Assembly (NCBI GenBank): GCA_020632035.1
Contig: JACKGG010000005.1
Location: 4,855-68,854 of the forward strand
Direction: 5' to 3'
DNA length: 64,000 nucleotides
Source: Candidatus Nomurabacteria bacterium
Lineage (GTDB): Bacteria > Patescibacteriota > Minisyncoccia > Phycocordibacterales > UBA918
Under the pieces are notes generated by a model. That model saw only the letters and a list, made by a program, of their open reading frames with translations. It was not told the DNA's origin and did not search any database. The translations under genes and the position numbers were made by a program. Below, one piece after another: positions 8,730 to 60,374 of this stretch. How positions within the stretch are numbered: position 1 is the first letter of the stretch; the number at the start of each line of letters is the position of its first letter.

Positions 8730-8738
8730 TACAAATTC

Positions 8739-12914: not shown

Positions 12915-12939
12915 GTCAGTATTCTACTACATCAACGAC

Positions 12940-13524: not shown

Positions 13525-13539
13525 GGGCATACAGATACT

Positions 13540-27829: not shown

Positions 27830-27844
27830 GTAAACGCTAAATCA

Positions 27845-27871
27845 AAAAACCTCCTAAATAGGAGGTTTTTT
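27845..27871 (+). terminator. rho-independent terminator
   Basis: AAAAACCTCCTA-AA-TAGGAGGTTTTTT. Confidence 0.6.
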
Positions 27872-27950
27872 GTGTATATAAGTTATAAACAAAATTATGG
27901 GAGGTGTTATTATTAGTCTTATTCCAAAATGTACAACAATTAACTAATCT

Positions 27951-33816: not shown

Positions 33817-33848
33817 AATAAAGAAGTAATCCACATATAATTAACGAT

Positions 33849-33882
33849 ACCGCGCCACTCACATCGAGTGGCGCGGTATACT
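33849..33882 (+). terminator. strong GC hairpin (ACCGCGCCACTC-ACAT-CGAGTGGCGCGGT), possible terminator
   Basis: A perfect 12-bp stem. The downstream tract is TATACTTATAA, which is T/A-rich but not a clean U-run. Confidence 0.4.
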
Positions 33883-33931: not shown

Positions 33932-36900
33932 GTGAATAAAAAACAATTTCACAACACAATAAAAAATCGAATAAAAGCATTGTTTAAAGCGCCAGATGGG
34001 AGAAAGCGGGTTTTTGATGTGCTTAAATTTAATACTAAACAAGTTCCTTTCCTCATTTTGGCTGTCTTTGTAACTTGCGCTCTACCTTACGTACATGCCC
34101 AGTTTTACGCGAATGCTGTTATTGTTCGCACTGTTAATGTTTTCCCAGCGAAAATCACTGCACCTGGATGGAAGAATGCAGAAACTTTAAATTTTCAAAA
34201 TCTCGATGAATATGCGTTGCTCCAAGAGTTTAATTCGATAAACTCAGCAACGATAGACAAAGGTTGGTCTTTACAGCCTGGAGAAACAAAACTTCCTGCG
34301 GATAAACCTGAGGCGATTAATACTCAGAAAAATGCCCAGTCTGCTTCTTCTTTAGATTCTTCAACTTCAACACCAGAAAGTGAAGTGGAAGTGACCGGAG
34401 CGTCTACCACAACAGTCCAGTTTGATGTAATTGAAAACGATGTTACCGAATCAGCTTTTGATGAAATTATTTCTAGTCAAGATACCTCGACTCAGGAAGT
34501 TATTGAGCCAGAAATTATTATAGATAAAGATGTTCCTGACGAAGCAACAACTACAGTAATGAGAAGAGTAGAATCGTTATTTGCTCTAGCTGTATCCAGC
34601 GTTACGTCTTTCTTTGATTCTTCGGCTACTACCGATGAACAACCGCCTAAAGAAGAAGTTGTTGATTCAACCGAGTTAGAGAATCCAGAAGTACTAGTTA
34701 ATGAATTAGATTTTAGTACACTAAACTCATCGACTATAACTACTGAGGAAGTCTTTGAGGAAAATCTATCTCCCGCTACACCAAATACTCAGGAAGTAGA
34801 AATAGTTGCCACTAGTACGGAAGTAAGTACTGAAATAGAGGCTTTCAACACTAGCAGTGAAACAGCTACAGGAATAGTAGAAGAGACACTTAATATCGCT
34901 TCTACCACTAATCAGCCAGTAGAAAAAATAGCAGACCAGGTAAATCAAGAACTTAAATTAGAAACAGAGGATAAAATCGAATGTCTAGAGAATTGTATTC
35001 CATATGTAATATCTCTATCTGACTTTGGTTTTCCTTTAGATGAAAAAGTCGAAATAACCGGTGCCCAATTAAGACTATCCTTTGCGGCTCGTAAAAAAGA
35101 AACCCGTAATCATATCCCAGAATTTTCAATCCGCTATTCATTAGATGGTGCTAAGTCTTGGACGGAGGCTGGATCGGTAGTGATTGATGATGAATCTTCT
35201 AATAGTGTAAACGGGGGTTATTATCTTTTTGCTTTACCAGAGGTTGTCGATCAAGAAGCTCTGAACAACTTACAAGTAGAATTGGTTTACTTAGATAATC
35301 CTGAAGTGCTAGATAATTTATATGTAGAAAGCGCTTGGTTAGAATTATTTACCCTAGAAACTTCAACCGATCAACCACTTGTCGATTTTGAAGAGTTGTT
35401 AAGAGATGATGGCTTTGATGAAGAGTTGTTGTCTGGTGACAACCTAGTCCTTCCAGACGGTAAAGAATTAAAGTTTGAGTTTACTGACAACAATAAAGAT
35501 GAAACTCTCATTATCAAAACTAACGAAGTAACATACGCAGGTCTGTCAGAAGCGACTACCTACTTTAGTGTCACTAACACATCAAATAGCTCTGATGAAT
35601 TCTCAGTTAAAACCTATTTCCCAGCTGGTGTCGGTGAAGTAACTTCTCTTGAAGTTTTTAATCAAAACAAGCCAAGACAAGCTGTTATTCCTGAATATCG
35701 ACCTTATGTTTATCATTGTGAGGGTGGTTGGGAGTATGCTGGGGAAGTTCTTCCACAAACTCTACAAGAATTATCAGAAAGCCTGTCTGGTGGAGGTGCA
35801 CTGTCTCCAGAAGACTCTTCAGTCACCACAACGCCAGAAATAACTGAATTTATTGAATCCATAGAGACTAAAGATAATAGTGAAGCAGTGGAGGAAACAA
35901 ACGTAGATTTCTCTTTACCAACCAGCACTGAAGAGAACGTTATAGAGTTCAATTTGCCTACATCTAGTAATACGACCACTGTTTTACGCCAATTAAACAC
36001 CCTTTCACAGTTGCTGCAGTTTTCTACAGTTACGACTAATACTGTCGACTTCGCACAAACACTAGACCAGATTGACTCAGCATCATCAACCGCTGTGTCT
36101 GGTGAAGACCTGGTCCAATCGTACAGTTGTCGAAACACCAACGTGGTTAGAGTATGCGATGAATTAGATGGCTCTAATACAGCGTGCAAGATGAGCCAGG
36201 TTAAGGTTCAGGATCATCAGATTACAAAGTATGCTCCTGGTTGGGATACTTCAACCATAAAAGAAGGATCTGCACCAAGACCGAGCTTCTTACGGCGAGT
36301 AGCTGAATTCATCGGCTTTGGTCCAAACCGTAAAGAGATCCCAGAAGACTTTGAAGTCCGAGTTCATACTCCTGATACATACGCTATAGAACCAGGTGAA
36401 ACGAAGTACTTCAAGATGGACATTTCTTTTCCTCCATTTTCAAGAGGTGAATATTGGATCGAAGCAGTTGGTAATAGTGAATATGGACTATTGGATCCAT
36501 TCTGGTCATCTGAGTGGCAATATCGTATACCGGTAAAAGTATCTAACCCAACTGATGAACCTCAGTCTGAATATCAAGTATTATTTGAGTTGGATTCGTC
36601 ATTGGCTGATTTCTGGAGTAACGTAAATAGTGACGGTTCAGATATTCGTTTTGTACAAGAGACGAGATTAGGTAATTTGTATGATAGTACTGGACCAGAA
36701 TTTGGTAATTTATTTGGTGAAGCATGGGGTGGACGTATTGCTCTGGTGATAGCCTCTACCAGCGTAAGTACAGGCGTTACTGATTTCCCTGTGTTTGTTG
36801 ATTTATCCACTCTTGGTTCAGTCTTTTGGAGTGGAGTCGCTTCAGATGGTTCAGATATTCGTATAACGAAACAGGACGGTTTTTCAGAATTACCATATGA

Positions 36901-39900
36901 TTTAGTTGAAATTGATGCTGTTGCACAAACAGGCGAATTACACTTCTTGGCTGATTCCTTGAGTAGTGTTTCAGACAATATTTTCCACATATATTTTGAT
37001 AATTCTAGTGCCACTGCTTATGCACCAACTGATCCATACGGCTCACAAGCCGTCTGGACTAACTATGAAGCCGTATACCACTTTTCTGACGACCCAACTA
37101 CAGTTACTAGTGTGATTACTGATGAAACTGGAAACGGACAAGAAATTGAAGTAGAAGGGGCTGGATTAGCTACCACGACTGGAGCGATGGGTACTGCTCT
37201 TGATATGATTGGCTCAGCTGGAATTTTGCGTGATGTCGGTGATGATTGGGCTTGGATAGGAGGTGATGACTTAGTGTCTACAGGTCTTTACTACCAGACG
37301 ACTTCTTCTGGAGAAGCTATTTGGGAATTTGGTAGTAGTGCAAACCCAAACTGGGCTGCCTACATGCCTTGGTACTCAAACGCCTCTACAACTGGTCGTG
37401 GGTACCTGTACTTTGGTTCAAACCAAAGTGGGACATGGGCACGAGACATAGATGTATGGCATCACTTTACTACTATTGCACCAGCTACCACAGGTCAATT
37501 GCATGGGATTTATGACAATGCTGTACTCGAACTGAGTAATACCCAAAGCACGGCTGCTCCATCAAACTTAGGTGGCTTACAAATAGGGCGATGGACAACT
37601 GCTGGTTCATATAATGGAATGATTGACGAACTTCGTTTTGCATCAAATGATGACGCTTTTAGTTCTGGCTGGGTTGCAACCGAACACCTTAATCAGACAG
37701 ATCCAACAAATTTCTATTCGACTAGTACAAGTATATTGGTAGGTGGAGAGAATGTATCTGGTTGGTTTTCTACTAGTTGGGATAATCGTGTTAAATTCAC
37801 TCTGGCCCAAGCAGAAGACAATATTTCTGATTTTCCAGTTTATTTGGACTTATCTACTTTAGGTGATGATTTTTTCACTAATGTGGCAAGTGACGGTAGA
37901 GATATTCGTGTAACGACTGGTGATAGTAGAACAGAGTTACCTTTTGAACTAGTGTCTATAGACACTAGTGCTAAAACCGGTGAGCTCTACTTTAAAACTG
38001 ATTTGACTCAAGATTCAACTACTGATTATTACATTTATTACAATAATAGCGACGCGGCAGCTTATTCGCCAACTGCAACATATGGTTCAGAGAATGTTTG
38101 GACTAATGGTTTCCAAGCGGTTTACCACCTTGAGGAAAGTGCTGCTGGTACAAGTAATCCTGATGTATATAAAGATTCTACTAGTAACCATTATCATGGA
38201 GATGATGAAAATGCTTCGGTTGGAAAGTACGGCTTGTTTGGAAAAGGACAGCAATTTGGATTAGATTCATCGGATTACTTAAGCTTACCTTATCAAGCAA
38301 TGGATGGATTAACCGATAATTCTGTGTCTTGGTGGCACATATCTTCATCATCCGATGATCAAACAATTCTTAGTGGCGCAAATGCTGTTCAGTTTAATGA
38401 ATTTTGGGAGCGTCTAGACAACAACAATTCGTTGATAATTTACTCACAAGGAGGTGGTAGGACTTTTAACTTATCTGATACTGTTGTTAATTATGCAGAT
38501 AATACCTGGCAGTATTATTTAACTACTTCAGAGGATGCGATCGATGAGGTGAATGCTTATATAAACGGGGTGGGAGACAGTGCCAATCCTGATCCTTTGA
38601 CCATATCAGCTTTGGATATTGATAGTGGTGGATTAATTGTTGGACAAGATCAAGATGCTCTTGGTGGAGGGTTTAGCACTGCTGAAAACTTTGAAGGTTT
38701 TCTAGATGAACTACGTATTGCTAGTGTGGTTAGATCTGCTGCTTGGGCAGCGGCTGAGTACGAAAACATGGCCAATCAGAATAGTTTTATTTCTGTCTCT
38801 GACAGTGAAACATTAACTGAGACAAATTTTGTAGAGTTAGATTTTTGGATACAGCATTTCGATGATACTGCAGAAGAAGCAGACATTTGGGTCCAGGTCG
38901 AGGATCTAGCTGTCGGTGACGATACAATTATCTACCTATATTACGGAAGTCCAGGGGCTTCGACAGCAAGTGACGAAATGGCCACATTTACATATAGCAC
39001 CTCTACAGATATCTTCTATGTGGTCGATGATCATGGAGCCACTAGTATTTCAATACAAAGTCTAGTTGATAACAACGAGGTTTCGCTTGATGGAGGAACT
39101 CCAATTCCTTTGAATCAGGGAGAGTCAACTATTTTCACTTCTGGTACATTCGATGGAGATTCTGTAATTAGTATTCTTGGTCCTATTTCAGGAACTGTAA
39201 CAGGAGCTGGTAATGATGGTGGGGACATGCTCGCTCCAATATCATTTGCGACTTCAAGTTTTGCTATACCGACCAGTCGTAGCACTGATCAATGGTTTGT
39301 TTATGCACCGTTTGCTAGTACAACAGCAAGGATATATAAAGGATCTTCCGGAACAGCCTTAGGCACGGCTAATATTGCTACCAGTACATCACATACGTTT
39401 AGTGTCAACATAACAAATACAAACCAAGGTGTTGATGGTGATGGAGCTGTAGTAGAAGCTTCCTCTCCAGTTCTTTTGACACACCGTCATACTACTCAAG
39501 GAGACGGTATGGTTGTGTATCCTCCTACTATTAGAGATATTTTTGGTTTCAATAACCAGTATATGCATTTCTCTGCATTAGCTTCAAACTCAGACCCACT
39601 ACTGAGCTGTTCGGCTGGAGCAGGCGGAACTCTCACTGGTATTACTCGAGGTGATCAAGAAGCAGATGCGTCTTGTACAGCTGGTGGTGAAGGTAGTGGG
39701 TCTGCGGTAAGGGCCAGTGGTCAAGCAGGTCCTATTGCTGCTCTTAGTCAGGCTGATGGAGATGGTAATGAATCAACAATATTTTGGCCTCAACATGAAT
39801 TTGGGACAAGGTACGCTATGACAAATGATAGTGCTTACGCTGCAGTAGTCTGTTCACCAAGATTTGGAGCTACTACACTAGAGATACAAGATAGTGCAGG

Positions 39901-48900: not shown

Positions 48901-51900
48901 TTCGACTAGTTCTGCTGAAGTTTTGACCTATAACGTTACCGCTGATGGGGTTCCTTCGACTTTCTGGTTGTTTTCTGCTGGTTCAGGAAATATCTACGGG
49001 GAATCTTTTGATAATGATGATGGGGATCCAGGATCAATCCAGTGGGATGACAGTAATTTTGCTGTAACTATATCCGGTGTTGTATATAGTGATGATGGAG
49101 TGACTCCAGAAGGCTTTCCTGTATGTAATGGTTCGACAGAGGTGGTAACTATCGTGCTTGATGGGGTTACTACATACACCGCTCCTTGTAATCCAATCGA
49201 TGGTACTTATAGAGTTGAAGGTATAGCTTATGTAGGAGAGCCAATAATAACTGCTTATATTGAAAGCAGTGCAACAGAAAACCAAACAAATGTAACTATT
49301 TATGATGAGACCACTGGGGTGGGGACTGTGGCAAGTAACATAATGACAGTAGCAAGGCCTAGTGTCGTGGACGATTCAGTTCTTGTTTTAATCGCTGGTA
49401 AGGATGATGATATTAATTTCGGAACGGCATCAGGTTGGACTTCTGTGGATATTCAAGGAGTCAACTCAGACGATCAAATTGCTGTTGGTATCTGGTACAA
49501 AGTTGTTTCAGATGCTGGTACGGAACCTGCAACATATGATTTTCCTATTGTTGACGGTGGTGAAGAATATAATTACTGGATGGGTTCATTACTAAATGTG
49601 GACACTGTTACACCAGTTGATGTTGCAAGTACATGGACGAAACTGATAAACAGTATTGCACCAAATGCACCTCAAATCACTACTGTAACAAATGGAGCAT
49701 TGGTACTTTCTGCCTGGTACGTAGATTCTGAAGTGGAAGTCACACCACCAGTTTATGGTTGGGATGATCGGGCTAGAAATGTCGTTGGAGCTGGTCTTAA
49801 TAACCTAACGGTTTCATCTCAACTCTTTGAAACAGCTGGTCCGACCGGTAGCTCTACATTAACCGGGGCAACTCTAAACAGCGATCCTTATGTTGGTCAG
49901 TTCGCCTTCAGGCCAGCTGCTAACCCGACTGCAACTGGAAGTATGGTTGCTGCGGTAGTGACAAAAACGCCACTTGGTAATTCTGGATCACCTTATGAAG
50001 ACATTGAATTACGTGATACTCGGGCAGGAACTGGATTGGTGGACTTCGCTACTAACATCACTGTCAATCGACCAGTGGTTGAAAACGGTGACGTTTTAGT
50101 AATGTTTATTGCCAGAGAAGATGATTTTAGTATTGCTGGTCCGCCTGGTTGGGTGGCTGCACAAGAAAGAATTGAAGGCACAGGAAATGATATGTACTCT
50201 GGTATATGGTATAAGGTTGTCACTAATGCTGGAGCGGAACCGGCCACTTATGATTTCTTAAATAATGATACTGCTGGTACAGAAGAGTATTCATATTGGA
50301 TAGGTTCATTTGATGGTGTTGATACAGGTAATGTATTTGATACTTCTGATTCATGGTCAAATCTCCAAAACACCTCTACTCCAGCTGCACCAAGTATTAC
50401 TACTGTAACCAATGGATCTTATGTGCTAGCTGGTTGGTATGTAATTGATGATGCTTCTTTGGATATGCCGGGTGCCCCATGGACCACCTTAGCTGATGAT
50501 ATCCAAACTGGTAGTAGACTACTAGCTGTTGCTGGACGATCATTTGCTACGGCTGGAGCAACTGGAGCAGTCACTCTTACAAACGGAAGTACAGATGATG
50601 TAAACGTCGGTCAGTTTGCTCTACGTCCAGCTCAAGTCTCTGTAGCAAGCAAGATTAAAGACATGGACTTGTATCAGAATCGGGTAATAGTAAGGCATGA
50701 AAACATTGACCCACTGACTATTGCCGATATGGACATATTCGACAATGGTAACGAATCAGACTTGCCATTTACGGTCACAATTGGATCACCAGACCAACTA
50801 AATGTATTATCAGGATCAGGTTTGTTTGTGTGGGGAGGTAAAACCTTTGCTCCAACTGGAGAAATTAATTTACAAGGAAACGGCTCAACTGTAGCAGATG
50901 GTTCCTTGAACTTAGGGACAGGAAGTACTTTCACGAGTGTTGGAACGAATCCAATTACCATTGGTGGTTCGCTCTACACTGGTACAGGAGCTACTTTTAC
51001 AGGTGCGTCTAGCCTGGTCACATTCACGGCAACAAATGCTGGGCAGCAGATTGGTTCAGCTGCCAGTTCAACGCTTACTTTTAACAGCTTAGCGTTTAAT
51101 GGTGTTGGTGGTAACTGGGCAGTAAAAACACCAATCTTGTCGCAAACAGGTATCTCAGTTGCAACAGGAACAGTTAGTGGTATTGCAAATATCACCGTAG
51201 ATACAGGTTCATTTTCAGGAAATGGTACTGTTGATATGACGGGAGGATTAACTACTATTAGGCGTACAAATACTCTTGGTGGTGCTAGAGCTTGGACATT
51301 CAATAGTTTGACACTCGGTAATGGATCTACTGCTGGAGTAACTACACCAGCAGGAATAGCTACCACATCAGTCCGTAGTGTGTTAACGATTGCAGCTGCT
51401 CACTTTTTGGATGCTAATAATTCACTGTGGGATTTAAGAGGAAACGGAAATGCATTTGTCGAAACAGGAACTTTGCTTGAAGATACAAGTACAATTCGCT
51501 TTAGTGGTATCACGCCAAACGTCAAGCAAACTCCTTATTACAACCTAACAATTGATACAGATCGAGGTGGAAGTGTGGTAGCGACAGCACCAGTAACTGG
51601 ATTACAGGTTCTGAATAATTTAAGGATTGGAGCGATCAGTACCTCTACGTTGAATGCAAATATCAATGATCCAGTATTAGCCGTTGGAAAGAATCTCTAT
51701 ATTGGCTCACGAGGTACGCTTGAAGCAAGTAACGTTCAGACTTTAACTGTAAACGGTAATTGGGATAATGACGGTGTCTTTAATGCGAATGGTGGAACTG
51801 TCACTTTCTCTAAGACAGGCGGAAGCGCAACGGTTGCAGCTGGTAATTCATCTTTTGCAAAATTAAATATCTTAGGTACAGCTGGATATATATTTACTGA

Positions 51901-54900
51901 AAATGCCACTACAACCAATAATATGGTTATTCAAACGGGTACCTTTACTCTTAATCCTGGACTAACACTGGCTGTCGGTGGCTCGTTTACTAACACCATG
52001 AACGACATAAATACTACCTGGACGGGGACCACTTTAAGTTTATATAGTGGAACAGCCTTTCAAGTAAATACTAAGGCAACAGGTGAGAAATATAACAATA
52101 TCGTTACTGCCAATGATACCCATCCTCGTCTTTGGAACTCTACTACTACCTCAGTAACTACACACGGCATTAGTTCAGTTTATTCGATGGATCACCAGAG
52201 GGTAGATGGAAGTCTTTATATTTTCGGTGATTATGTAAATGAAGGATATAACGATTATTGGAATTATGCAGAAGATTTTGACGGTGCTGTCTTAGGAACA
52301 AAGCGACAAGCCAAAGTTCGAGTTGAGGCTGGTGGATCAATAAAGTATCCAAGTGGTTCATTATATATTGTGGGTTCTTCCACGGCTTCAACTACTGTTT
52401 CTGTGCAGACTGCTGGCACTTATCAATTATTGATTGGTGGAGATACTGATGTAGAAATGAATCATTATGTGATACGTGACACTACTGCTGACGGCCTAAT
52501 CTTCACTGGAGCGCCAGATATCATTGATTTGTCTTACGGTGATCTTGAAGTTCAGATTGCTGAAGGGACAGCAATGACTGTAGGTGGAACAGTAATCAAT
52601 GCTAATCCCGCAATGGAATTCAATCGAGTAGGATTAGCTACGACTACAGCGATTAATGCCTACAATGTCACAGCGACTGGTACTAGTGCCAGTGCTTGGC
52701 GGTTTGTGAATGTAGTTGGAAACCTCGGTGGAGAAGCTAAAGACGTTGATCCGGGCGGAGACCCAGGTTACGTAACCTGGCAAGATTCAGCTGCGATCAT
52801 CAATATTTCCGGTACTGTTTATAGTGACGAAGCATCAAATGTATCCGCCGCTTGTGACAGCACAACCGGTAATATTTACTTAAGTATTAATGGAACAACT
52901 TTTGCTACCACAACCTGTAACGGGGATGGTCTCGGAGGAGGAACAGGAGCCTACACCTTTACTGGCATTAATTATGGACTTGGCAACACCCTGACAGTCT
53001 ATATAAACAACGAGGCAGAAAAAGCTGTTACAGTGACTCAAGATCCGATTTCTTCAATAACAAATCTAGATTTGTATGAAAATAGAGTCGTTGTGCGACA
53101 CGAGAGTGGGGCCGCCATGACTATTGCAGATATGGGAACCTGGGATAGTGATGATGATCCAGATGTACTTTTTGATGTAGAAACAGTAGGCGCAGATACT
53201 TTAACTCTACCAGCTGATACTAAACTAATAGTCACTAGTAACAAGAAGTTCACACCTGCTGGAAGCATCATAGTGCCGGGAGGAGGAAGTGGTTCAACTT
53301 ATGACGGTACGGTTGAGCTAAAAGCTGGAGCAATATTTACTGGAGGTAGCAATCAGTCACATGTCATTGGTGGAAGTCTGATTTCAGGTGCTGGAGCATC
53401 GTTTGTCTCTGGACAATCTACCACTACCTTTACCTCTGTGGTGACTGGACGCACGATCGACACTAATGAAGCTGGTTTCTATAATTTGACTTTAAACGGT
53501 GCTGGAGACTGGACAGTTTCAGATACAGAATTAAGCATTGGCAACGACTTAGTAATTACTTCAGGAGATCTAACTTTGCCGGCTGCCACCACAACCATAT
53601 CGGGATCGTTGGAAAACACTGGAGGAACCTTTGATAATAATGGGGGAATTCTTTTGTTTGATTCTGGTAGCGGAGGGAACACTGTTGAGCTTGGTGGTTC
53701 AGATGCAAATCGAATTGAGTTTAGTGGGGCAGGCAGTTGGTCATTCGCAGACGTAAATGCAACGGCCACCGATTCATTTATTGTTGATACTGGTACAGTT
53801 ACGCTACCGTCTGGTACTCTAACTATAGGAGAAGATTTTATAGTAACCGACACAGTAGCTCACGCTGGCGGAACAGTTAAACTAATTGCTACTGATGCTG
53901 GTAACTTTATTACATTATCTGGAAATGATTTGGCTGATTTGCGTGTGGTGGCTGGTGCAGGTGATTACACCCTTACTGACGCATCGGCTGCCCTAACTGG
54001 TAATCTGTTTATTGAAAGTGGAACGTTTAAATCCGGAGCAGGGACTCTATCTATTGCTGGATCCTTCGATGCGACTGGCGGTGTTTTCCTAAATAACTCT
54101 GGAACAATATTGTTCAATTCTGGAGATACTGGTGAGTTTGTCGATCCGGGTATAAATAATTTTTATAACCTGCAGTTTGCTGGAGCTGGTGGAGGATGGA
54201 CTATTCTAAATAATGCTACTACAACACATAACTTCACTTTAAGTACTGGTTCTTTATTTACTATGAGTTCTGGGACAGTGCTCTACGTCGGTGGAGTATT
54301 TACCAACACTCTAGGAGGCTCTGCGACTGAGTGGCTCGGTTCAAATATTGTGTTAGATTCTGGTACAGAATATGAAACAAACTTAAAAAATACTCCAGCT
54401 GAGCGCTATAACATATTAACTCTAGGTGAAAATACAGACATAAGTAGTTGGAATTCAAGTGCTACCAGCACATCTATACCATCCAATTCATCTTGGTACT
54501 CACAAGATCATAGTGCTGTCGATGGTAGCTTGTATATTTATGGTGATTATCATATTACTACCACTACAGAATATTGGAGCAGATCAACTGACTTTGATGG
54601 TGTCGCTCTTGGCTCACCAAGAGCAGTCAGTGTTGCGATCGCAAGTAGTTCAGTCATTTATGTAGACGGCGGATCGTTGAACATGGTTGGTGCTACAAAC
54701 GCCACTACTACAGTAACGAACCAGGGAACAGGAAGATACTCTTTCTTTGCTACTAGCGGAACCATCAATGGTAGTTATTACTCATTTAGAAATCTTGATA
54801 CTAGTGGGCTACAGATGATCGGAAACATCAATGTAACGTCATTAAGTAATGGTGATTTTGAGATTGCTCAGGATGATTCAGTAGCTATTACAATCAACTC

Positions 54901-57382
54901 TAATACTGTTAACAATAATGCCTCACTAATTATTACTAGTACTAGATTTGCCGATAATGGTTTTGCTGGTGGGGTAAACGTATCTTTGGACGCAACAACC
55001 ACCAATAGTTGGTTATTTACTGGACAGATTGGAAATATGTGGGGTGAAGGATTTGATATAGACGGAACAGATGATTGTAGTTCGATCCGTTGGGATAATA
55101 GTTCTTGTTTGTTAACAGAGCAAGCAACATATAGATGGAGAAACGATGACGGTGGTGAAGGTGCGCCATCCGGAACTTGGTATAATTCTGACTTCACAGC
55201 TCGTAAAAGGGTGAGAGTTGTTAATGATGATTCGGTAACTTATACAAACGTACCTGTTAAATTTGAGGTTCAGTATGATGCAGATATGCAGGCAGACTTT
55301 GACGACATTAGATTTACGGACGCTACTGGAGTAAATGTTCTTGAGTATTGGCGTGAACGGTATACTAGTGCCACTGATGCAGATTTCTGGGTAAAAATAC
55401 CAACTCTTGCGACTAGTAGCGTAACCGAGATTTACATGTACTACGGAGATGTTAGTACTACAACTACTAGTGAAATTAGCAACATCTTCAATGCTTACGA
55501 TGACTTTGATGATAATAATATAACTGAATATTCAGGTGAAGTTGCAAAATTTGCTACTGCCGGAACTTTTGCATTTGGTGGAGGATACGGTCTCGATTCA
55601 TCACCTAATGCAAACGCAAAAGCACTTGATGGTATTGGAAGAACTGATTTTACTGTTTCTCAGGGTGAGATAATTAGATATATGCAGTATGTAGATACTG
55701 CAGCAGGTAGTGGTGATGAAGTCTGTACACTATTCGGTATGCAATCTCCTGTTACGATAAACCAAAATTATGCTGTCTGTCTTGAACAATTTGGTATCGA
55801 CCGTGTCTCATTGGTAAAAAATGCTCAAAATACTGATTCTTCTGGTACGAAAATTGGTACCACAACTATTACTTACAGTACTGGTTGGTACGAAATTGAA
55901 GTTGATTGGCAGACAAATAATCGCATTGACGTGTCTGTATACAATAACGCTGGTACTTTAGTAGCCACAACTTCAGCCATTGATAGTACTTACACTACAG
56001 GTGGATTTGGTTTCACTTTCTGGGGACAACATGGAGGTTGGGATAGTTTTGTATCATGGCCAAGAACTGAATCAAAACCAACGGTCTACTTTGGTGCTGA
56101 ACAAGTTGATGGTGGTGCTAGTTGGGCTGCGTTGCAGAATACTCCGGTTGGTGGGTTTAATATAAGTCAAACTGCAAGACTTCGAATCGGAATTGAGAAC
56201 ACTGGATTGCCAATAACTAATCAAAACTTCCGACTTGAATTTGCACCAAAGTTGACTGCTCCGAGCTGTCAAGCTGTATCATCTGGATCGTTTGTTCAAG
56301 TGCCAGTCCTAGCTAGTTGTGGTTCATCTGAAATATGTATGACTACTTCGTCATTTACTTCAAACGGAGATACTACTACTGATCACTTAGTAACTGTAAA
56401 CGGTGAGTTTTCCCCTGGAAAAATAGTGGCCAATACAGCAAATCAAACTACTGCTATGGATGTTGATCAGAATAAGTATACAGAACTAGAATACTCTCTA
56501 AAACTTACAGTCAATGCTGTAAATGATGCTTATTGCTTCCGTGTGACTGATGGAGGATCACTACTAGACTCATATGCATCGCTGCCAGAACTGACACTAG
56601 CTTTTGATCCGTTTTTGGATACTCTCACACTAAATAATGGATTCGATATTTCATTGAATCCAGGTGCTACAACTACTGTAATAGCTTCAACTACGGTTAC
56701 TGACTACAATGGTGTCGCAGATTTATTTTCAGCAACTACAACTTTCTATAAAACGTCAGTTGGAGCAGCTTGTACACCGGACAATAACAATTGTTATGTA
56801 GCCTCAGGCACTGCTTGTTCGTTTACTGACTGTACTGCTAACTCATGTACACTTAGTTGTTCAGTAGATATGCAATTCCACGCTGACCCAACAGACTCAG
56901 ATGGTGGAGAACAATGGTTCGCCTTTATGGAGGTTGAAGATTTGTCTGGTGGTAATGACTTTGGTACTTCTCCAGCAGTAGAGTTGCTAACACTAAGGGC
57001 ACTAGATGTTCAAAACTCAATCGGATATGGAACAGTAGACATAAATCAAAACACTGGTTCATACAATCCTGATACAGAGATACTTAACATTGGTAATGAG
57101 TCAATTGATGTACAGATCTCCGGAACAGATATGACGGACGGTGTCACTTCTGTGATTCCAGCTACCCAACAAGTCTTTGCAACAACTACTTTTGATTACT
57201 CTACATGCGTCTCTTGTAACTCGCTTTCTGTGACCGGAACAAATGTAGAGGTAGATTTAACCAAACCAGTAGTAGATGATCCGTTAGTGTCAGATGATAT
57301 CTACTGGGGAATTGAAGTACCTTTCGGAACTGCCAGTAACCCACACAGCGGAGTTAACACGTTTACAGCGATTGCTGATTAG
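33932..57382 (+). CDS. giant secreted protein (7,816 aa) with seven DUF2341-like + LamG/ConA-like modules and a WxL-like C-terminal domain
   Basis: A single uninterrupted frame begins with GTG at 33932. The N-terminal signal anchor is 'FLILAVFVTCALPYVHAQ'. Repeated module starts fall near 36515 (partial), 36725, 37778, 44290, 45893, 47924 and 55190. Each contains ...DFPVY(I/V/L)DLSTLG..FW..V.SDG.DIR(V/I)T...G.TELPY(D/E)LV... and is followed by a LamG_3-like block (VYHF.(D/E)DP...(T/S)GNG...DE(L/F)R(F/I)A). The C-terminal 150 aa is homologous to the C-terminus of the 61694-63598 product. Confidence 0.8.
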   Translation: MNKKQFHNTIKNRIKALFKAPDGRKRVFDVLKFNTKQVPFLILAVFVTCALPYVHAQFYANAVIVRTVNVFPAKITAPGWKNAETLNFQNLDEYALLQEFNSINSATIDKGWSLQPGETKLPADKPEAINTQKNAQSASSLDSSTSTPESEVEVTGASTTTVQFDVIENDVTESAFDEIISSQDTSTQEVIEPEIIIDKDVPDEATTTVMRRVESLFALAVSSVTSFFDSSATTDEQPPKEEVVDSTELENPEVLVNELDFSTLNSSTITTEEVFEENLSPATPNTQEVEIVATSTEVSTEIEAFNTSSETATGIVEETLNIASTTNQPVEKIADQVNQELKLETEDKIECLENCIPYVISLSDFGFPLDEKVEITGAQLRLSFAARKKETRNHIPEFSIRYSLDGAKSWTEAGSVVIDDESSNSVNGGYYLFALPEVVDQEALNNLQVELVYLDNPEVLDNLYVESAWLELFTLETSTDQPLVDFEELLRDDGFDEELLSGDNLVLPDGKELKFEFTDNNKDETLIIKTNEVTYAGLSEATTYFSVTNTSNSSDEFSVKTYFPAGVGEVTSLEVFNQNKPRQAVIPEYRPYVYHCEGGWEYAGEVLPQTLQELSESLSGGGALSPEDSSVTTTPEITEFIESIETKDNSEAVEETNVDFSLPTSTEENVIEFNLPTSSNTTTVLRQLNTLSQLLQFSTVTTNTVDFAQTLDQIDSASSTAVSGEDLVQSYSCRNTNVVRVCDELDGSNTACKMSQVKVQDHQITKYAPGWDTSTIKEGSAPRPSFLRRVAEFIGFGPNRKEIPEDFEVRVHTPDTYAIEPGETKYFKMDISFPPFSRGEYWIEAVGNSEYGLLDPFWSSEWQYRIPVKVSNPTDEPQSEYQVLFELDSSLADFWSNVNSDGSDIRFVQETRLGNLYDSTGPEFGNLFGEAWGGRIALVIASTSVSTGVTDFPVFVDLSTLGSVFWSGVASDGSDIRITKQDGFSELPYDLVEIDAVAQTGELHFLADSLSSVSDNIFHIYFDNSSATAYAPTDPYGSQAVWTNYEAVYHFSDDPTTVTSVITDETGNGQEIEVEGAGLATTTGAMGTALDMIGSAGILRDVGDDWAWIGGDDLVSTGLYYQTTSSGEAIWEFGSSANPNWAAYMPWYSNASTTGRGYLYFGSNQSGTWARDIDVWHHFTTIAPATTGQLHGIYDNAVLELSNTQSTAAPSNLGGLQIGRWTTAGSYNGMIDELRFASNDDAFSSGWVATEHLNQTDPTNFYSTSTSILVGGENVSGWFSTSWDNRVKFTLAQAEDNISDFPVYLDLSTLGDDFFTNVASDGRDIRVTTGDSRTELPFELVSIDTSAKTGELYFKTDLTQDSTTDYYIYYNNSDAAAYSPTATYGSENVWTNGFQAVYHLEESAAGTSNPDVYKDSTSNHYHGDDENASVGKYGLFGKGQQFGLDSSDYLSLPYQAMDGLTDNSVSWWHISSSSDDQTILSGANAVQFNEFWERLDNNNSLIIYSQGGGRTFNLSDTVVNYADNTWQYYLTTSEDAIDEVNAYINGVGDSANPDPLTISALDIDSGGLIVGQDQDALGGGFSTAENFEGFLDELRIASVVRSAAWAAAEYENMANQNSFISVSDSETLTETNFVELDFWIQHFDDTAEEADIWVQVEDLAVGDDTIIYLYYGSPGASTASDEMATFTYSTSTDIFYVVDDHGATSISIQSLVDNNEVSLDGGTPIPLNQGESTIFTSGTFDGDSVISILGPISGTVTGAGNDGGDMLAPISFATSSFAIPTSRSTDQWFVYAPFASTTARIYKGSSGTALGTANIATSTSHTFSVNITNTNQGVDGDGAVVEASSPVLLTHRHTTQGDGMVVYPPTIRDIFGFNNQYMHFSALASNSDPLLSCSAGAGGTLTGITRGDQEADASCTAGGEGSGSAVRASGQAGPIAALSQADGDGNESTIFWPQHEFGTRYAMTNDSAYAAVVCSPRFGATTLEIQDSAGNTVDTGTCTPGATTPGKAFFNNGNGTDGDAVNYVAGHQVVSTNGVPFKVIYEDVKVEQDEKNISGSVQARKFAGEYTTFIFGEQEIANDAEYEQLSFRWYQNNGLLAPATAWALNDTEFVSEGGAIIGAGAVADTDVLRLRMNLRASNATGTENSAAFNLQYAVGTAGQCDLVSDWFDIGEQGSTTAAFSGYDNPSVGDGKTLSTTKLAASTVLGTYEERNHSDFLPNDVPVNGVVEFDWVIEATNVDVNTNYCFRMTRVSGVELVTYTLYPELETVGPPNTPTNVVFFDNEKTNVLTPVLEFYTIDIAGDDVHYRVQIDDDYDFTSVVLDRNSDSHFSEFENLDLPSDKAPFTSGNRIRFTSSSGLSPTTTYWYRVRASDPDGSATSSDWSVPTSFTTDTVITVSEWLQTTTEQFQTNSLSGVTVSGNQVSVSVNPGTMTSTPIDFDDAVVGNAWGEVSWNDTETSGAITIQVQYNNNGNWTLIPDSQITGNSVGISTSPINILSLDTSIYNEIRLVATFTGTTLSLQDWSVKWGLRVETPVQGDLFDNQKVNTTVPHFDFLSNDPQGDDLEYEISFSTDINFILSSSTYNSSTSPGFASQLYTSGDTAVYITQPGDAFTNGLTYWWRTRARDTLGGNSWSSWAEPDSFTVDTGISLSTWFQTTKEQFEQGFTEGTIASTSNSVIMSDDVGEYGTVALTDNNEVTITTQRTYENMVVVASPEYSSTIFTDARTPRVYDKTSNSFKIKVDNYTGGFVGSTAVDYIVMEAGDWTIADGATGFRVLAGTESVTAVQNQPYLNGVGSLITFSPAFSTAPVPLATLASNNDSTWAGIAIDDRVGYLNEVTTSQMGLSLSKSRSLLSHSEAEDVDYIVFAPKIGTNNGVKFRSFNSSDNVDDYPTNGGYGQALGAGFTSTPGVTLTANNGTDGSDGAFIFKNLSGTQSNSSLFLSAHEMGATADAHTQEISSIVAFESSSGMIARQNSGNLSGTFAGEDIVFSDGAGPKFDNFSWSATTPGASTVSVQIQYQVSEGVYALIPNSQIPGNSVGTTTSPIDLTGVDIDLYPVIRAFATLSCNSGNCPSLDDWKLEWSEGVNMSGTLKEYDRLTNVATGTIMAAVNGIPVASSATASSGVWTISNVTAFAGDIVTVWVDGATESEEAVAAFVYDGIGDISGVELFEQHLSISSNEEETVTNTLLGMYDNLASGDEDIFFDVDGSNNLVLCSVGTCSDANIYIGLGNTYIPASTGGVSVSTHDFVNDGFIELDSNTFNVSGSWKNYATSSTDTSVLNMTAATGTESISSTESPLNFHTVSFGSGIGDATFLIPDNLDLSGSLTVASGTLSRDGLMLSVAGNITTGTAGFWLGTGTTTFDGAGSKTWRDDNPVTQIIGDVLIDGASTIVTALTDVGAYDIRIGTNDRLNGSSGNTIFVAGDWKNSGTYSAQNGTVEIINDNRSYPPIVPGSQDWYVDSSFDSRIMLELNHAEVPGDLSDFPLYVDLSTLGNSFWSEVANDGHDIRVTSGDGQTELPYDLVRINTTTKNGELHFLADNVESSTSTYFFIYFNNPTATTYQTYDTYGSEAVWTDYEAVYHFNDDPTAVDNYVLDSTTNQRHLLVEAAALATSTGKLGLGINLIGSTGILRNAGFTWQSGNPLITSGWYKMPAASNESLWQWGTGASPDNLEYRPWYSGVTGLHYFGVTSGATYSQTPRDTTNWVHFTTVGATSTSQDNVVYQNSLEVERITQTVANPYNNGATGLQVGRNGTTNSLQAQLDEFRITTITRNQSWVQAEYNNQHSPTIFYSTTTVQSYTPDLVIDEPTHNISTGGSSFYNLIINDATTSPAFINPSVSVLGTFTVATGTIALPTGTLTVGRSFINNGYFMHNNGEVKFTSTVPATITLNGTQFFNALYNVTFSGTGSWTFSDLNATSSNDVIINNGSVVFPTGVMTIGGTLDVNAGSFNANNGTVKFTSSENEDVTTKGSSFNNVIFGLNDSTVGWYNSDWARRSVITIASTSVAGAVTGFPVYIDLSMLGDEFWSNVQSDGDGIRITSANGKTELPYDLVEFSAGLRTGELHFLAPSLSSISDTNFYLYYDNPEATAYESGDTYGSEAVWVEYEAVYHFNEDPVGGITDASGNGKDLVPTVGTPLTTAGVLGTALDTTPSSVMLEDSDWTWTSGEDLVSSGLYFQSAVDTGALWEWGSSCSTDDCLAYMPWYDSGDRGYNRFGETSGNDFRFTRDNSKWHHFTTNGRATDGEPVQIFEDSILRGSYLQSSTGENPSQTGLQIGRYVTNTYMDIDIDELRFATTTRSQQWITTEYNNLTNVDDFYSTSTELYLEVVPSFTLDEVTTDVNGDVTIYYANLVAPSNNLKIGGSALNVGGSYDPNNATTTFDSNDIGETVEFGDGAFYNLSFNGIGGGWTISTTTVANNTSLVAGADFTLSPGNTLFVGGIFSNAFSAVSTTWTGSTLALSGGDYTVTGRLDSGDDYARLIVSGDSDLVIWNSSVSTSTIRDTSSLYMPDYDTVDGQLRIYGDYTRASGVEYWSYDTDFDGTNLSGGGERPVAVSIGRGSAILFATSTSLEVIGTIGATTTVQAITGIYSLKVNAGTFDGQYASFSNIGPLGLQLSNGTVINNFSNSEFSVAGGRTGITADATTINAQPSAEYVGIIFSTSSANSIYEPAWIDQVVVKIFSGTVNEDLIDYPVYIDLSTLGSSFWSGVQSDGRDIRITTNNGLELPFDLVEINTITKTGELHFLAPLVSSGQDTAFYVHFNNPAATSYLATDEYGANAVWSNYEAVYHFNEDPTLSITDMTGNGRDLYPTVGSMATTSGLLGTALDTTASNARIENVAWTWTPGDDLISSGLYYMSNFDTGALWQFGAGNGSNNGTYLAYLPWYNSATRGYHFFGITSGGDYDFARNNAIWHHFTTIGRAADGATSEFYEDNLLRDSVTQITSSANPSNTGLRIGAYQNSTYLDVDVDELRFATVVPSTNRIDAEHLNFTDPSSFYSTSSAEVLTYNVTADGVPSTFWLFSAGSGNIYGESFDNDDGDPGSIQWDDSNFAVTISGVVYSDDGVTPEGFPVCNGSTEVVTIVLDGVTTYTAPCNPIDGTYRVEGIAYVGEPIITAYIESSATENQTNVTIYDETTGVGTVASNIMTVARPSVVDDSVLVLIAGKDDDINFGTASGWTSVDIQGVNSDDQIAVGIWYKVVSDAGTEPATYDFPIVDGGEEYNYWMGSLLNVDTVTPVDVASTWTKLINSIAPNAPQITTVTNGALVLSAWYVDSEVEVTPPVYGWDDRARNVVGAGLNNLTVSSQLFETAGPTGSSTLTGATLNSDPYVGQFAFRPAANPTATGSMVAAVVTKTPLGNSGSPYEDIELRDTRAGTGLVDFATNITVNRPVVENGDVLVMFIAREDDFSIAGPPGWVAAQERIEGTGNDMYSGIWYKVVTNAGAEPATYDFLNNDTAGTEEYSYWIGSFDGVDTGNVFDTSDSWSNLQNTSTPAAPSITTVTNGSYVLAGWYVIDDASLDMPGAPWTTLADDIQTGSRLLAVAGRSFATAGATGAVTLTNGSTDDVNVGQFALRPAQVSVASKIKDMDLYQNRVIVRHENIDPLTIADMDIFDNGNESDLPFTVTIGSPDQLNVLSGSGLFVWGGKTFAPTGEINLQGNGSTVADGSLNLGTGSTFTSVGTNPITIGGSLYTGTGATFTGASSLVTFTATNAGQQIGSAASSTLTFNSLAFNGVGGNWAVKTPILSQTGISVATGTVSGIANITVDTGSFSGNGTVDMTGGLTTIRRTNTLGGARAWTFNSLTLGNGSTAGVTTPAGIATTSVRSVLTIAAAHFLDANNSLWDLRGNGNAFVETGTLLEDTSTIRFSGITPNVKQTPYYNLTIDTDRGGSVVATAPVTGLQVLNNLRIGAISTSTLNANINDPVLAVGKNLYIGSRGTLEASNVQTLTVNGNWDNDGVFNANGGTVTFSKTGGSATVAAGNSSFAKLNILGTAGYIFTENATTTNNMVIQTGTFTLNPGLTLAVGGSFTNTMNDINTTWTGTTLSLYSGTAFQVNTKATGEKYNNIVTANDTHPRLWNSTTTSVTTHGISSVYSMDHQRVDGSLYIFGDYVNEGYNDYWNYAEDFDGAVLGTKRQAKVRVEAGGSIKYPSGSLYIVGSSTASTTVSVQTAGTYQLLIGGDTDVEMNHYVIRDTTADGLIFTGAPDIIDLSYGDLEVQIAEGTAMTVGGTVINANPAMEFNRVGLATTTAINAYNVTATGTSASAWRFVNVVGNLGGEAKDVDPGGDPGYVTWQDSAAIINISGTVYSDEASNVSAACDSTTGNIYLSINGTTFATTTCNGDGLGGGTGAYTFTGINYGLGNTLTVYINNEAEKAVTVTQDPISSITNLDLYENRVVVRHESGAAMTIADMGTWDSDDDPDVLFDVETVGADTLTLPADTKLIVTSNKKFTPAGSIIVPGGGSGSTYDGTVELKAGAIFTGGSNQSHVIGGSLISGAGASFVSGQSTTTFTSVVTGRTIDTNEAGFYNLTLNGAGDWTVSDTELSIGNDLVITSGDLTLPAATTTISGSLENTGGTFDNNGGILLFDSGSGGNTVELGGSDANRIEFSGAGSWSFADVNATATDSFIVDTGTVTLPSGTLTIGEDFIVTDTVAHAGGTVKLIATDAGNFITLSGNDLADLRVVAGAGDYTLTDASAALTGNLFIESGTFKSGAGTLSIAGSFDATGGVFLNNSGTILFNSGDTGEFVDPGINNFYNLQFAGAGGGWTILNNATTTHNFTLSTGSLFTMSSGTVLYVGGVFTNTLGGSATEWLGSNIVLDSGTEYETNLKNTPAERYNILTLGENTDISSWNSSATSTSIPSNSSWYSQDHSAVDGSLYIYGDYHITTTTEYWSRSTDFDGVALGSPRAVSVAIASSSVIYVDGGSLNMVGATNATTTVTNQGTGRYSFFATSGTINGSYYSFRNLDTSGLQMIGNINVTSLSNGDFEIAQDDSVAITINSNTVNNNASLIITSTRFADNGFAGGVNVSLDATTTNSWLFTGQIGNMWGEGFDIDGTDDCSSIRWDNSSCLLTEQATYRWRNDDGGEGAPSGTWYNSDFTARKRVRVVNDDSVTYTNVPVKFEVQYDADMQADFDDIRFTDATGVNVLEYWRERYTSATDADFWVKIPTLATSSVTEIYMYYGDVSTTTTSEISNIFNAYDDFDDNNITEYSGEVAKFATAGTFAFGGGYGLDSSPNANAKALDGIGRTDFTVSQGEIIRYMQYVDTAAGSGDEVCTLFGMQSPVTINQNYAVCLEQFGIDRVSLVKNAQNTDSSGTKIGTTTITYSTGWYEIEVDWQTNNRIDVSVYNNAGTLVATTSAIDSTYTTGGFGFTFWGQHGGWDSFVSWPRTESKPTVYFGAEQVDGGASWAALQNTPVGGFNISQTARLRIGIENTGLPITNQNFRLEFAPKLTAPSCQAVSSGSFVQVPVLASCGSSEICMTTSSFTSNGDTTTDHLVTVNGEFSPGKIVANTANQTTAMDVDQNKYTELEYSLKLTVNAVNDAYCFRVTDGGSLLDSYASLPELTLAFDPFLDTLTLNNGFDISLNPGATTTVIASTTVTDYNGVADLFSATTTFYKTSVGAACTPDNNNCYVASGTACSFTDCTANSCTLSCSVDMQFHADPTDSDGGEQWFAFMEVEDLSGGNDFGTSPAVELLTLRALDVQNSIGYGTVDINQNTGSYNPDTEILNIGNESIDVQISGTDMTDGVTSVIPATQQVFATTTFDYSTCVSCNSLSVTGTNVEVDLTKPVVDDPLVSDDIYWGIEVPFGTASNPHSGVNTFTAIAD

Positions 57383-59051: not shown

Positions 59052-60374
59052 ATGGCAAAACCGCTCATTGTAGCTCGGGATCTTTCGATTATTTATAATA
59101 AAGGAAAATCCAACGAATTTAAGGCTCTCCAGGGTGTTAACACGGACATCTTTGAAGGAGAGTACATTATTTTGTTTGGCCCTTCTGGTTGTGGAAAGTC
59201 AACGCTCATGTACTCAATCCAGGGATCTCTTCCGCCTGGAGAAGGTACTTTGCTAATTAAAGGCGATGATGTTTATTCTTACCCACCCTCAGAACGCGTT
59301 TATTTCCAACGCCACGTTATGGGTATTATTTTTCAATCTTTTAACCTGATCGGGTCACTATCGGTACTCGACAACGTGGCATTACCAATGATCTTTTGTG
59401 ATGCCGACCGCACTACGCGTGAAAGACGAGCTCAGTCCTTGCTTGACCGTTTTGGAGTTGGTCACGTATCACACAAAATCCCTGCTATGCTTTCAGGAGG
59501 ACAGCAACAAAGAGTTTCAGTAGCTCGGTCAATGGTTAATGACCCCAAGATTCTTTTGGCTGACGAACCAACTGGTAACCTAGACTCAATCTCAACCCAA
59601 CAAGTTATGGATAAGATCGATGAGATTAACACCTTCGATCGAAGAACTATTATTATGGTTTCCCATAATGCAGCGCACCTGAGTTATGCTCATAGGGTTT
59701 ACTATCTTAGAGATGGTAGAATCGTGCGTGAGGTTGTTAACCCACAGCGAAAGCAAATAAAACCAGTAAGAGAAGGAGAGACTATTGTAACTGAGCTGGA
59801 ACAGTTAGCCAGGTTATTTCCGTACGACTCAGTAGAAACCCTAAGGGTAAAAAGTTTAGTCAACTACCTTACTCAAGACTATAGCTTTGACCAGATAATA
59901 AAGCTCGAACGGGCCACCTCACTTTTTATTCAAGGAAAAATTGACAGAGCCTCTTATATAAAAAGTTTAATCCTACCAACTGAAAGGGGCGGGGTACAAA
60001 TTGACGAGAAAGAGGCTCGCCGTATGGCCAACATTTCAGAAAAAATGATAAAAAACGCTGATGATATACGTAGATTTAGAGCCAGAAAAGACAATAACGA
60101 TATATTTTTTAGCCAGCATATTTTAGCTGAAAGAATGCAGGAACATTTACTCCAAACCTACCGAATAAAGTTGGACAAAAAACAAGCTAGTAACATGACT
60201 GAAGTTATAGCTGATAGAGTAACTGGCGTTATTGAGGAAGAAGAACTAAATCAAAGATTAATGAAAAGTGTTCGCTCGCATGGTTTGGGGCTGAGCGAGA
60301 AGGAGGCAGATGATTTAACTAGATACTTCGAAAAAATAATTGCTCAAGGAGTTGATGTAAACTATAAGAACTAG
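59052..60374 (+). CDS. ABC transporter ATP-binding protein (MacB/LolD/FtsE-like) with about 210-aa C-terminal extension
   Basis: Walker A is 'GPSGCGKST', the signature is '[15 protein letters not shown]' and Walker B is '[12 protein letters not shown]'. After about aa 230 there is a charged helical domain with no recognised homology. Confidence 0.85.

Follow-up and report, generated by a model that had tools for sequence, protein, structure and literature searches.

The subject of this analysis was a giant open reading frame (ORF) and the genes that followed it in a 64,000-nucleotide stretch of a Candidatus Nomurabacteria bacterium (assembly GCA_020632035.1, contig JACKGG010000005.1, positions 4,855 to 68,854 of the forward strand). 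This whole stretch is called the window, and all positions below were counted from its first letter. A preliminary description, made from the letters alone, had reported that one frame stayed open from a GTG at 33932 to a TAG at 57382 and encoded 7,816 amino acids (aa), which we confirmed. The gene was intact, old and under purifying selection across the whole length that was compared. Its product was a member of a lineage-wide family of surface proteins of 5,000-7,800 aa from Parcubacteria/Paceibacteria, which belong to the Candidate Phyla Radiation (CPR). The giant gene and its parts were as follows (CTD, C-terminal domain; ConA, concanavalin A; CBM, carbohydrate-binding module).

33932-57382, + strand: giant ORF of 23.4 kb, putative GTG start to TAG stop
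33932-34105, + strand: basic N-terminal region, then the one hydrophobic segment of the protein (aa 36-58), which is either an uncleaved signal anchor or a signal peptide for Sec; the layout recurred in the family
34106-36499, + strand: conserved N-terminal region (aa 59-856); the motif RT(V/I)(N/H)VFP...GW (aa ~62-84) and an acidic stretch rich in Ser, Thr and Glu
36500-36664, + strand: truncated DUF2341 fragment (aa 857-911) without a LamG block after it
36707-37741, + strand: type I cassette 1 (aa 926-1270), DUF2341 plus a ConA/LamG-like domain
37760-38818, + strand: type I cassette 2 (aa 1277-1629), lectin half above the Laminin_G_3 cut-off, also with a Pentaxin match
38789-39520, + strand: type II cassette 1 (aa ~1620-1863), divergent DUF2341 (Pfam match aa 1632-1687), then a homologue of the domain at aa 7151-7364
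40745-41977, + strand: modB, two repeats of ~155 aa (aa 2272-2428 and 2531-2682), weak Ig_Rha78A_N / fn3-like signal
44291-45319, + strand: type I cassette 3 (aa 3454-3796), Laminin_G_3 match sub-threshold (E 0.0035)
45875-46894, + strand: type I cassette 4 (aa 3982-4321), the modelled copy, ConA-like lectin fold
46988-47863, + strand: modC copy (aa 4353-4644), a Thr/Gly-rich scaffold repeat of ~294 aa
47906-48928, + strand: type I cassette 5 (aa 4659-4999)
49289-50632, + strand: modD, two repeats of ~210 aa (aa 5120-5329 and 5357-5567)
50648-55135, + strand: main Thr/Gly-rich scaffold (aa 5573-7068), modC and modE repeats
55178-56023, + strand: type II cassette 2 (aa 7083-7364), canonical DUF2341 (E 2.7e-17), then a ConA-like domain (CBM66 / legume-lectin / DUF1080-like type)
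56024-56734, + strand: beta-sandwich domain(s) past the last lectin cassette and before the CTD (aa 7365-7601)
56735-57379, + strand: CTD (aa 7602-7816), an all-beta domain rich in cysteine; conserved motifs DPTD and YWG(I/V)xVP

Integrity and predicted export of the giant protein

The GTG at 33932 was the first in-frame start past the upstream stop, and the in-frame alternatives (TTG and GTG at codons 17 and 30) both preceded the membrane segment. The opposite strand carried only short shadow ORFs, as had been described, with just two of at least 150 aa inside the giant ORF (35713-36189 and 42979-43614). An open frame of 7,816 codons in DNA of 40% G+C could not have arisen by chance.

A search for orthologues that covered species-representative genomes returned one orthologous locus, which we designated L003. 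It came from a metagenome-assembled genome (MAG) deposited as 'MAG: Candidatus Parcubacteria bacterium isolate CG_2015-02_43_9'. A single frame ran uninterrupted over the whole 14.1 kb that was fetched and was collinear with residues 3099-7816 of the window protein. The two proteins were 68% identical over 4,715 aligned positions with just 5 + 56 gap columns. Comparison of their codons gave a nonsynonymous proportion (pN) of 0.21 and a synonymous proportion (pS) of 0.77, which was saturated, and the values were alike across every 200-residue bin. Inside the giant ORF, DNA self-identity did not exceed about 69% and the longest exact repeat was 33 nt, in line with the previous statement that the repeats were old and not an assembly duplication. 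Thus, the uninterrupted collinear orthologue, the excess of pS over pN and the low self-identity showed that the gene was neither a pseudogene nor a mis-assembled repeat. Since it was under purifying selection, the gene must matter to the cell.

One point in favor of an artefact, with repeats collapsed or expanded during assembly, or of a gene in decay was the large number of frameshifts that broke the homologous regions of three other loci (L001, L004 and L005). However, the frameshifted assemblies also split unrelated neighbours, namely FtsX in L004 and the fn3 gene in L005, so the frame breaks read as assembly indel errors. Together with the intact, constrained and collinear pair of genes described above and the low identity of the repeats at the DNA level, this left the artefact explanation with a negligible probability. 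The shattering itself had a consequence for databases. In the long-contig metagenome assemblies (L001 1-6700, L004 1-10000 and L005 1-10000) frame changes broke the giant gene into pieces, and such shattered genes gave rise to entries named 'DUF2341 domain-containing protein' of ~800-1,300 aa, often 3' remnants, so that the family sizes were under-reported.

The signal anchor that had been proposed for the N-terminus agreed with the segment at aa 36-58, which was the only hydrophobic segment of the whole protein. The N-terminal region of ~850 aa was acidic and Ser/Thr-rich as claimed; it was also conserved across the family and therefore not a mere linker. The protein as a whole was strongly acidic (943 D+E vs 312 K+R) and all-beta in the two regions that were modelled. 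It had no C-terminal transmembrane helix or other hydrophobic segment there, and its lone match to the sortase motif LPxT(G/A/N) was internal, at aa 7426. The repeats-in-toxin (RTX) motif GGxGxD was absent from its sequence, and the first 80 aa contained no class III prepilin motif. The protein is thus predicted to be extracytoplasmic and disulfide-capable, with an N-terminal Sec-type signal or anchor.

Lectin cassettes, scaffold and C-terminal domain

Repeats were found by chunked BLAST and by iterated hidden Markov models (HMMs) built from the giant protein itself; a self-BLAST of the whole protein returned the self match only and reported no repeats. There were five complete type I cassettes, each bipartite and ~345 aa long, and the type I copies were 44-59% identical to one another. 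The two type II copies of DUF2341 (aa ~1631 and 7083) were followed by a different domain of ~215 aa and were 32% identical to each other. Their identity with the type I copies of DUF2341 was just 15-26%. All cassettes together accounted for 2,293 residues, or 29% of the protein.

Accordingly, the picture of seven copies of one module, which had been given before, was kept in part. The DUF2341-type modules lay at 36500, 36707, 37760, 44291, 45875, 47906 and 55178, within ~20 nt of the starts originally listed. The proposed consensus described the five full modules well: DLS(T/M)LG, AVYH and (L/I/V)DE(L/F)R(F/I) occurred in all five, WHHFT/WVHFT in four and (T/S)GNG in three. The copy at 55178 (type II, aa 7083) had none of these motifs, and the copy at aa ~1631 had been missed. 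Similarly, a LamG block after each module was right for the type I copies, which were followed by a ConA/LamG-like block, and wrong for the truncated one. The identity of 35-45% estimated by eye was too low for the type I copies and too high for type I against type II. The protein could not be called built from seven such pairs, since the cassettes were variable insertions (0-5 copies) in a conserved scaffold without Pfam annotation.

Domain searches had been suggested as a check on the module assignments. Pfam gathering scores were 23.4 bits for DUF2341 (PF10102) and 27.6 bits for Laminin_G_3 (PF13385, clan CL0004). PF10102 was significant on the two protein halves with 95 and 85 bits, both above the gathering score. 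Its individual matches lay at aa ~1632-1687, 4028-4091 and 7122-7197 and in three stretches within aa 758-1757; the match at aa ~3500-3581 was sub-threshold (20.7 bits) and cassette 5 had none. For Laminin_G_3 the outcome was divided: on isolated half-modules, cassette 2 passed with 44.3 bits (E 2.7e-11) and matched Pentaxin as well, cassette 3 stayed below the threshold (17.9 bits), and cassettes 1, 4 and 5 had no direct match. All five modules were nonetheless 40-56% identical to each other. Database homologues of the type I cassette carried both PF13385 and PF10102 as precomputed annotations. Among the lectin halves (37082-48928), Laminin_G_3 was missed on chunks of 1000 aa at E<=1, yet reached 44 bits on a half-module of 229 aa. 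Long, compositionally biased queries can therefore mask genuine domain matches.

The structure of one module had also been recommended for prediction, and the AlphaFold2 model of cassette 4 was of high quality, with a predicted local distance difference test score (pLDDT) of 90.8 and a predicted template modelling score (pTM) of 0.92. It had a ConA-like two-sheet jelly-roll that matched lectin and CBM folds. The likenesses listed included the receptor-binding domains of tetanus and botulinum toxins, CBM40 sialic-acid lectins, pentraxins, LamG domains and the lectin module of the Streptococcus sanguinis minor pilin PilC (PDB 7oa7/7oa8). The catalytic motif ExDxxE of the glycoside hydrolase family 16 (GH16) type was absent from the cassettes. 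As judged from this model, the blocks after the type I DUF2341 copies have a ConA/LamG-like fold akin to that of carbohydrate-binding lectins.

The remainder of the protein was far less recognizable and included at least four other repeat families (modB, modC, modD and modE). Outside the cassettes there was no Pfam, NCBIfam or PDB sequence match, apart from a weak Ig/fn3-like signal near aa 2355. PDB sequence searches with both protein halves and with a modC profile gave nothing, and NCBIfam on the whole protein gave nothing useful. A homologue search with the Thr/Gly-rich scaffold produced 13 matches, none of them usefully annotated by Pfam. The beta-helix family Ice_binding (PF11999) was annotated on the homologous tracts in locus L006 and on a relative, P0020. 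In its sequence pattern the tract at aa 5573-7068 was reminiscent of beta-solenoid rungs, and the Thr/Gly-rich repeats probably form a beta-solenoid.

At its end the protein had three beta-sandwich domains in the structure model. The CTD profile matched the final 215 residues with E 2.2e-97, and the same domain ended a 634-aa protein encoded four genes downstream (BLASTP E 9e-13; HMM E 1e-49). Orthologues of the latter in L004 and L005 likewise ended in this domain. An exhaustive profile search collected 1,940 protein cluster representatives, and for 578 the E-value was 1e-30 or lower. Among the best 145 matches outside those already collected, 29 were of at least 4,000 aa, 26 of at least 5,000 aa and 7 of at least 7,000 aa, with a maximum of 7,696 aa. 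The domain was at the extreme C-terminus in all large proteins among the matches examined.

A WxL-like wall-binding domain, which had been assigned to this end of the protein, was rejected. PF13731 had no match at E<=1 on the 1000-aa chunk aa 6817-7816. When the CTD was scanned alone at E<=10, PF13731 was again missing and DUF7065 (E 0.083) was the only match. In 18 diverse members the conserved tryptophans of the CTD sat in W-x-A (W61) and W-G-(I/V) (W191-G192) contexts. The CTD is a family-specific, cysteine-rich beta-sandwich domain and not WxL.

We applied the HMMs derived from the window protein to the giants among the best CTD matches. Giants of 5,300-7,700 aa had 10-13 modC repeats, 3-4 modE, 2-5 modB and one CTD, compared with 12, 4 and 2 repeats, respectively, in the window protein. 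At the N-terminus the family giants also had a membrane segment, after which came the conserved motif RTxHVFP...GW. On the other hand, relatives of 5,000-7,700 aa had between 0 and 5 full type I cassettes, and many proteins of 5,300-6,600 aa had none. The syntenic relative in L005 was without the segment corresponding to aa ~4658-5574 of the window protein, among other segments. Because the cassettes varied on a constant scaffold, we regarded them as accessory insertions. The window protein and one relative of 7,696 aa represented the long, cassette-rich end of the family.

This architecture had been called unusual. It is not unusual in the lineage, where at least 26 cluster representatives of at least 5,000 aa shared the scaffold and the CTD. 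The assignment to a CPR-like lineage was well founded: in addition to the orthologue in the Candidatus Parcubacteria MAG, other relatives were labelled Kaiserbacteria, Paceibacterota or Minisyncoccia, with the database name 'DUF2341 domain-containing protein'.

The five-gene unit and its surroundings

The giant gene was the first of five genes bounded by two hairpins, which were arranged in the window as follows (ABC, ATP-binding cassette).

33847-33879, + strand: strong terminator-like hairpin with a stem of 14-15 bp; it ended the upstream cohesin gene and marked the 5' boundary of the unit
57432-58985, + strand: secreted fn3 / Pur_ac_phosph_N-like protein; the listed ORF began at 57294, and the probable start ATG at 57432 gave a signal peptide
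59052-60374, + strand: 440-aa ABC ATPase; its counterparts in syntenic loci were 80-93% identical
60377-61591, + strand: permease of a MacB-type ABC transporter (MacB_PCD + FtsX), four hydrophobic segments
61694-63598, + strand: 634-aa protein (p634) with an N-terminal membrane anchor and the CTD of the giant, no Pfam match
63620-63653, + strand: strong intrinsic-terminator-like hairpin, a 15-bp stem followed by TTTTT, closing the five-gene unit

The order giant gene, fn3 gene, ABC ATPase, MacB_PCD/FtsX and CTD protein was found in the window and in loci L004, L005, L006, L007 and L008. In L001 it was the same as far as the contig reached, which was cut within the ATPase gene. Loci whose giants were as little as ~44% identical at the C-terminus still kept this order, in some cases with two small genes added. 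No pilus genes were found in the operon or among the ORFs of the 64-kb window that were scanned. No gene for a membrane fusion protein (MFP) or for an outer-membrane partner was found by the giant gene or in the window ORFs scanned.

Upstream, the window was rich in surface proteins, with genes for cohesin, dockerin, WxLIP_PGBD and PG_binding_1 proteins. A dockerin-domain protein (29508-31412) and a cohesin + Big_13 protein (32287-33816) were encoded just upstream of the unit and may be a cohesin-dockerin pair in a CPR genome. In L004 and L005, DUF4215/dockerin genes that lay downstream of the operon showed ~40% identity to the last 240 aa of the dockerin protein; an exact look-up of the neighbouring cohesin protein returned no record. 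Within 26696-29039, a 377-aa secreted protein without a Pfam match adjoined a WxLIP_PGBD (DUF916) protein that had membrane segments at its C-terminus. Past the operon, a partial ORF (~63690-64000) began with a signal peptide followed by 'GFGITPPYVRN...'. These genes may represent a csc/WxL-like surface cluster, though no WxL domain was detected.

Several other features of the window were recorded. A second large surface protein of 1,651 aa (14467-19422) had SpaA-like, CarboxypepD_reg and PG_binding_1 domains. A protein of 166 aa (22588-23088) matched Phage_30_3 (PF08010, E 2e-18) and, weakly, NADAR. The sole RNA gene detected was tRNA-Ser(GGA) at 2699-2785.

A further locus, L002 (GCA_013558375.1, positions 6668-17658), encoded two Laminin_G_3 proteins, distant homologues of the cassettes, inside a type IV pilus cluster. 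This cluster was followed by a gene for a membrane-fusion-like protein and MacB-type ABC genes. Here, for a second time and independently, LamG proteins lay near a transporter of the MacB type.

Candidate functions and comparison with known systems

With somewhat better than even confidence, we favored the view that the giant protein serves attachment to a host or prey cell as a multivalent lectin fibre. It would be exported by Sec and would stay tethered via its N-terminal helix. The Thr/Gly-rich repeats would form a long rigid beta-solenoid stalk, and the lectin cassettes along it would allow multivalent binding to envelope glycans of the host or prey cell, with lineage-specific gain and loss of cassettes tuning the specificity. 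By rough estimate, a beta-rich chain of this size might reach several hundred nanometres when fully extended. The fn3 protein, the MacB-type ABC transporter and the CTD membrane protein, presumably transcribed together with the giant gene, would probably take part in assembling, holding or actuating the fibre at the envelope. An adhesin role of the giant surface protein, as the preliminary description had put forward, was plausible, and it matched proposals in the literature (PMC11809585, PMC13059738). Several points weighed against the lectin-fibre view. Many members of the family had no type I cassette, so the core function of the family, as far as the sequences tell, cannot depend on the cassettes. 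The fold of the stalk was deduced only from composition, repeat pattern and the Ice_binding annotation of homologues. The ConA-like fold also occurs in enzymes (GH16 and polysaccharide lyases) and in purely structural proteins. Finally, the conservation of the operon was seen in one lineage only, where shared ancestry may explain a part of it.

A rival view was a structural protein of the envelope, such as an S-layer-like coat, a spacer or a wall scaffold, that would give shape or protection to the CPR cell surface instead of binding a host and whose lectins would bind the wall polysaccharide of the cell itself. The scaffold and the CTD were conserved while cassettes were dispensable in many members, purifying selection was uniform along the whole length, the composition was acidic and Thr/Ser/Gly-rich as in many S-layer proteins, and the neighbours encoded the wall-associated cohesin, dockerin, WxLIP_PGBD and PG_binding_1 proteins. 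However, a single N-terminally anchored chain of 7.8 thousand residues would be atypical of lattice-forming S-layer proteins, and Pfam and NCBIfam scans revealed no S-layer homology (SLH) or other S-layer domain. Moreover, cassette number differed between close relatives, which is more typical of interaction surfaces. We therefore considered a structural role rather unlikely, at about one chance in a handful. That the giant acts outside the cell as an enzyme or attack protein and degrades the wall polysaccharides of the host was clearly less probable. Such a role had a precedent in predatory Omnitrophota, where giant genes were linked to cell-wall degradation (bioRxiv 10.1101/2023.11.21.568195), but neither Pfam nor NCBIfam recognized a catalytic family anywhere in the 7,816 aa, the ExDxxE motif was lacking, and the best fold matches were non-catalytic binding modules.

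We gave slightly less credence still to a tip adhesin associated with type IV pili, similar to PilY1, and held it to be very improbable. Neither the N-terminus, which had no class III signal, nor the operon and the rest of the 64-kb window, which had no pilus genes among the ORFs scanned, fitted such a role, and the conserved partners were the fn3 protein and the MacB-type ABC transporter instead. The idea drew on the proposal that DUF2341 proteins of archaeal type IV pilus loci are tip proteins like PilY1, on DUF2341 proteins in methanococcal type IV pilus loci (PMC4858521), on a DUF2341 gene of the epd pilus locus that was found in a transformation screen (PMC10133366) and on the distant homologue inside the pilus cluster of L002. 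An extension of the lectin-fibre view, in which the five-gene unit would be a dedicated and undescribed envelope machine of Paceibacteria, was more speculative, and we thought it improbable to much the same degree as the structural role. In such a machine the shared CTD would serve for docking or recognition, and the use of ATP by the ABC transporter on the cytoplasmic side would assemble, release or mechanically actuate the fibre at contact with the host. It would be a monoderm analogue of the roles of LolCDE and MacB for lipoproteins and toxins, with MacB-type transporters acting in mechanotransmission.

Adhesins of the LapA, SiiE and MpIBP type are secreted by type I secretion systems, which consist of an ABC exporter, an MFP and TolC; their secretion signal is C-terminal, they contain RTX repeats, and an N-terminal Sec signal is missing. 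Similar to them, the giant had thousands of residues, an acidic and beta-rich chain, a predicted long stalk with ligand- or sugar-binding modules and an adjacent ABC gene. In contrast, it had an N-terminal signal or anchor, no RTX repeats and a transporter of the MacB_PCD/FtsX type. An RTX adhesin of type I secretion was rejected on the absence of GGxGxD, the presence of the N-terminal hydrophobic signal and the lack of an MFP gene. A two-partner secretion exoprotein of the FhaB type was rejected because PF05860 had no match at E<=1 in any chunk and there was no gene for a TpsB-type outer-membrane partner. Also rejected were an LPXTG sortase-anchored protein (no C-terminal LPXTG and no C-terminal hydrophobic segment) and a pilin or modular pilin (no prepilin motif and no pilus genes in the window ORFs scanned).

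The Gram-positive proteins Aap/SasG and YwfG have a C-terminal LPXTG sortase anchor and one L-type lectin head on a repeat stalk, whereas the giant had an N-terminal anchor and seven lectin cassettes and was 3-5 times larger. Unlike S. sanguinis PilC (7oa7/7oa8), a modular type IV pilin onto which a ConA-like lectin module is grafted, and the archaeal DUF2341 proteins of type IV pili (PMC4858521), it had neither a pilin N-terminus nor pilus genes. With the WxL proteins of Firmicutes (PF13731, with WxLIP/DUF916 partners) it shared a putative non-covalent surface domain of ~200 aa at the C-terminus, the context of a monoderm-type envelope, a WxLIP_PGBD protein encoded 5 kb upstream and a W-G-(I/V) near the end of the CTD. 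It differed from them in a cysteine-rich CTD with other conserved motifs and without a PF13731 match, and in other partner genes.

Giant DUF2341 proteins of Patescibacteria were a kind already known, though uncharacterised. According to a study of Patescibacterium danicum, whose genome is <1 Mbp, 149 of 2.1 million patescibacterial proteins at NCBI were longer than 4,000 aa, and 82 of these 149 had FhaB and/or DUF2341; adhesion was suggested as their role (PMC11809585). These proteins resembled the window protein in phylum, size class, DUF2341, predicted surface location and the proposed function in adhesion or host interaction. The study gave domain counts only, with no full-length homologues of its own proteins, and, as far as its text was available, did not describe the marks of the present family. 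Large surface proteins bearing ConA and fn3 domains were also proposed to be host-recognition factors in Absconditicoccaceae (PMC13059738). In the searchable literature we found no definition of the family, no CTD common to two operon proteins, no pattern of variable cassettes and no conserved operon with a MacB-type transporter. The linkage of the operon and the CTD was the part most worth following.

The presumed way of life of CPR bacteria, or Patescibacteria, is attachment to other cells, and outside Saccharibacteria the ways in which they recognise and keep hold of a host are barely known. Their genomes usually stay below about 1 Mb. If the genome studied here were ~1 Mb, a gene of 23.4 kb would take a few percent of its coding capacity. 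The definition of the family helps to correct databases in which giant genes stand as fragments of ~1,000 aa. Moreover, the features of the family, namely its scaffold, exchangeable cassettes, diagnostic CTD and operon partners, provide handles for the prediction of host range and for work on glycan binding.

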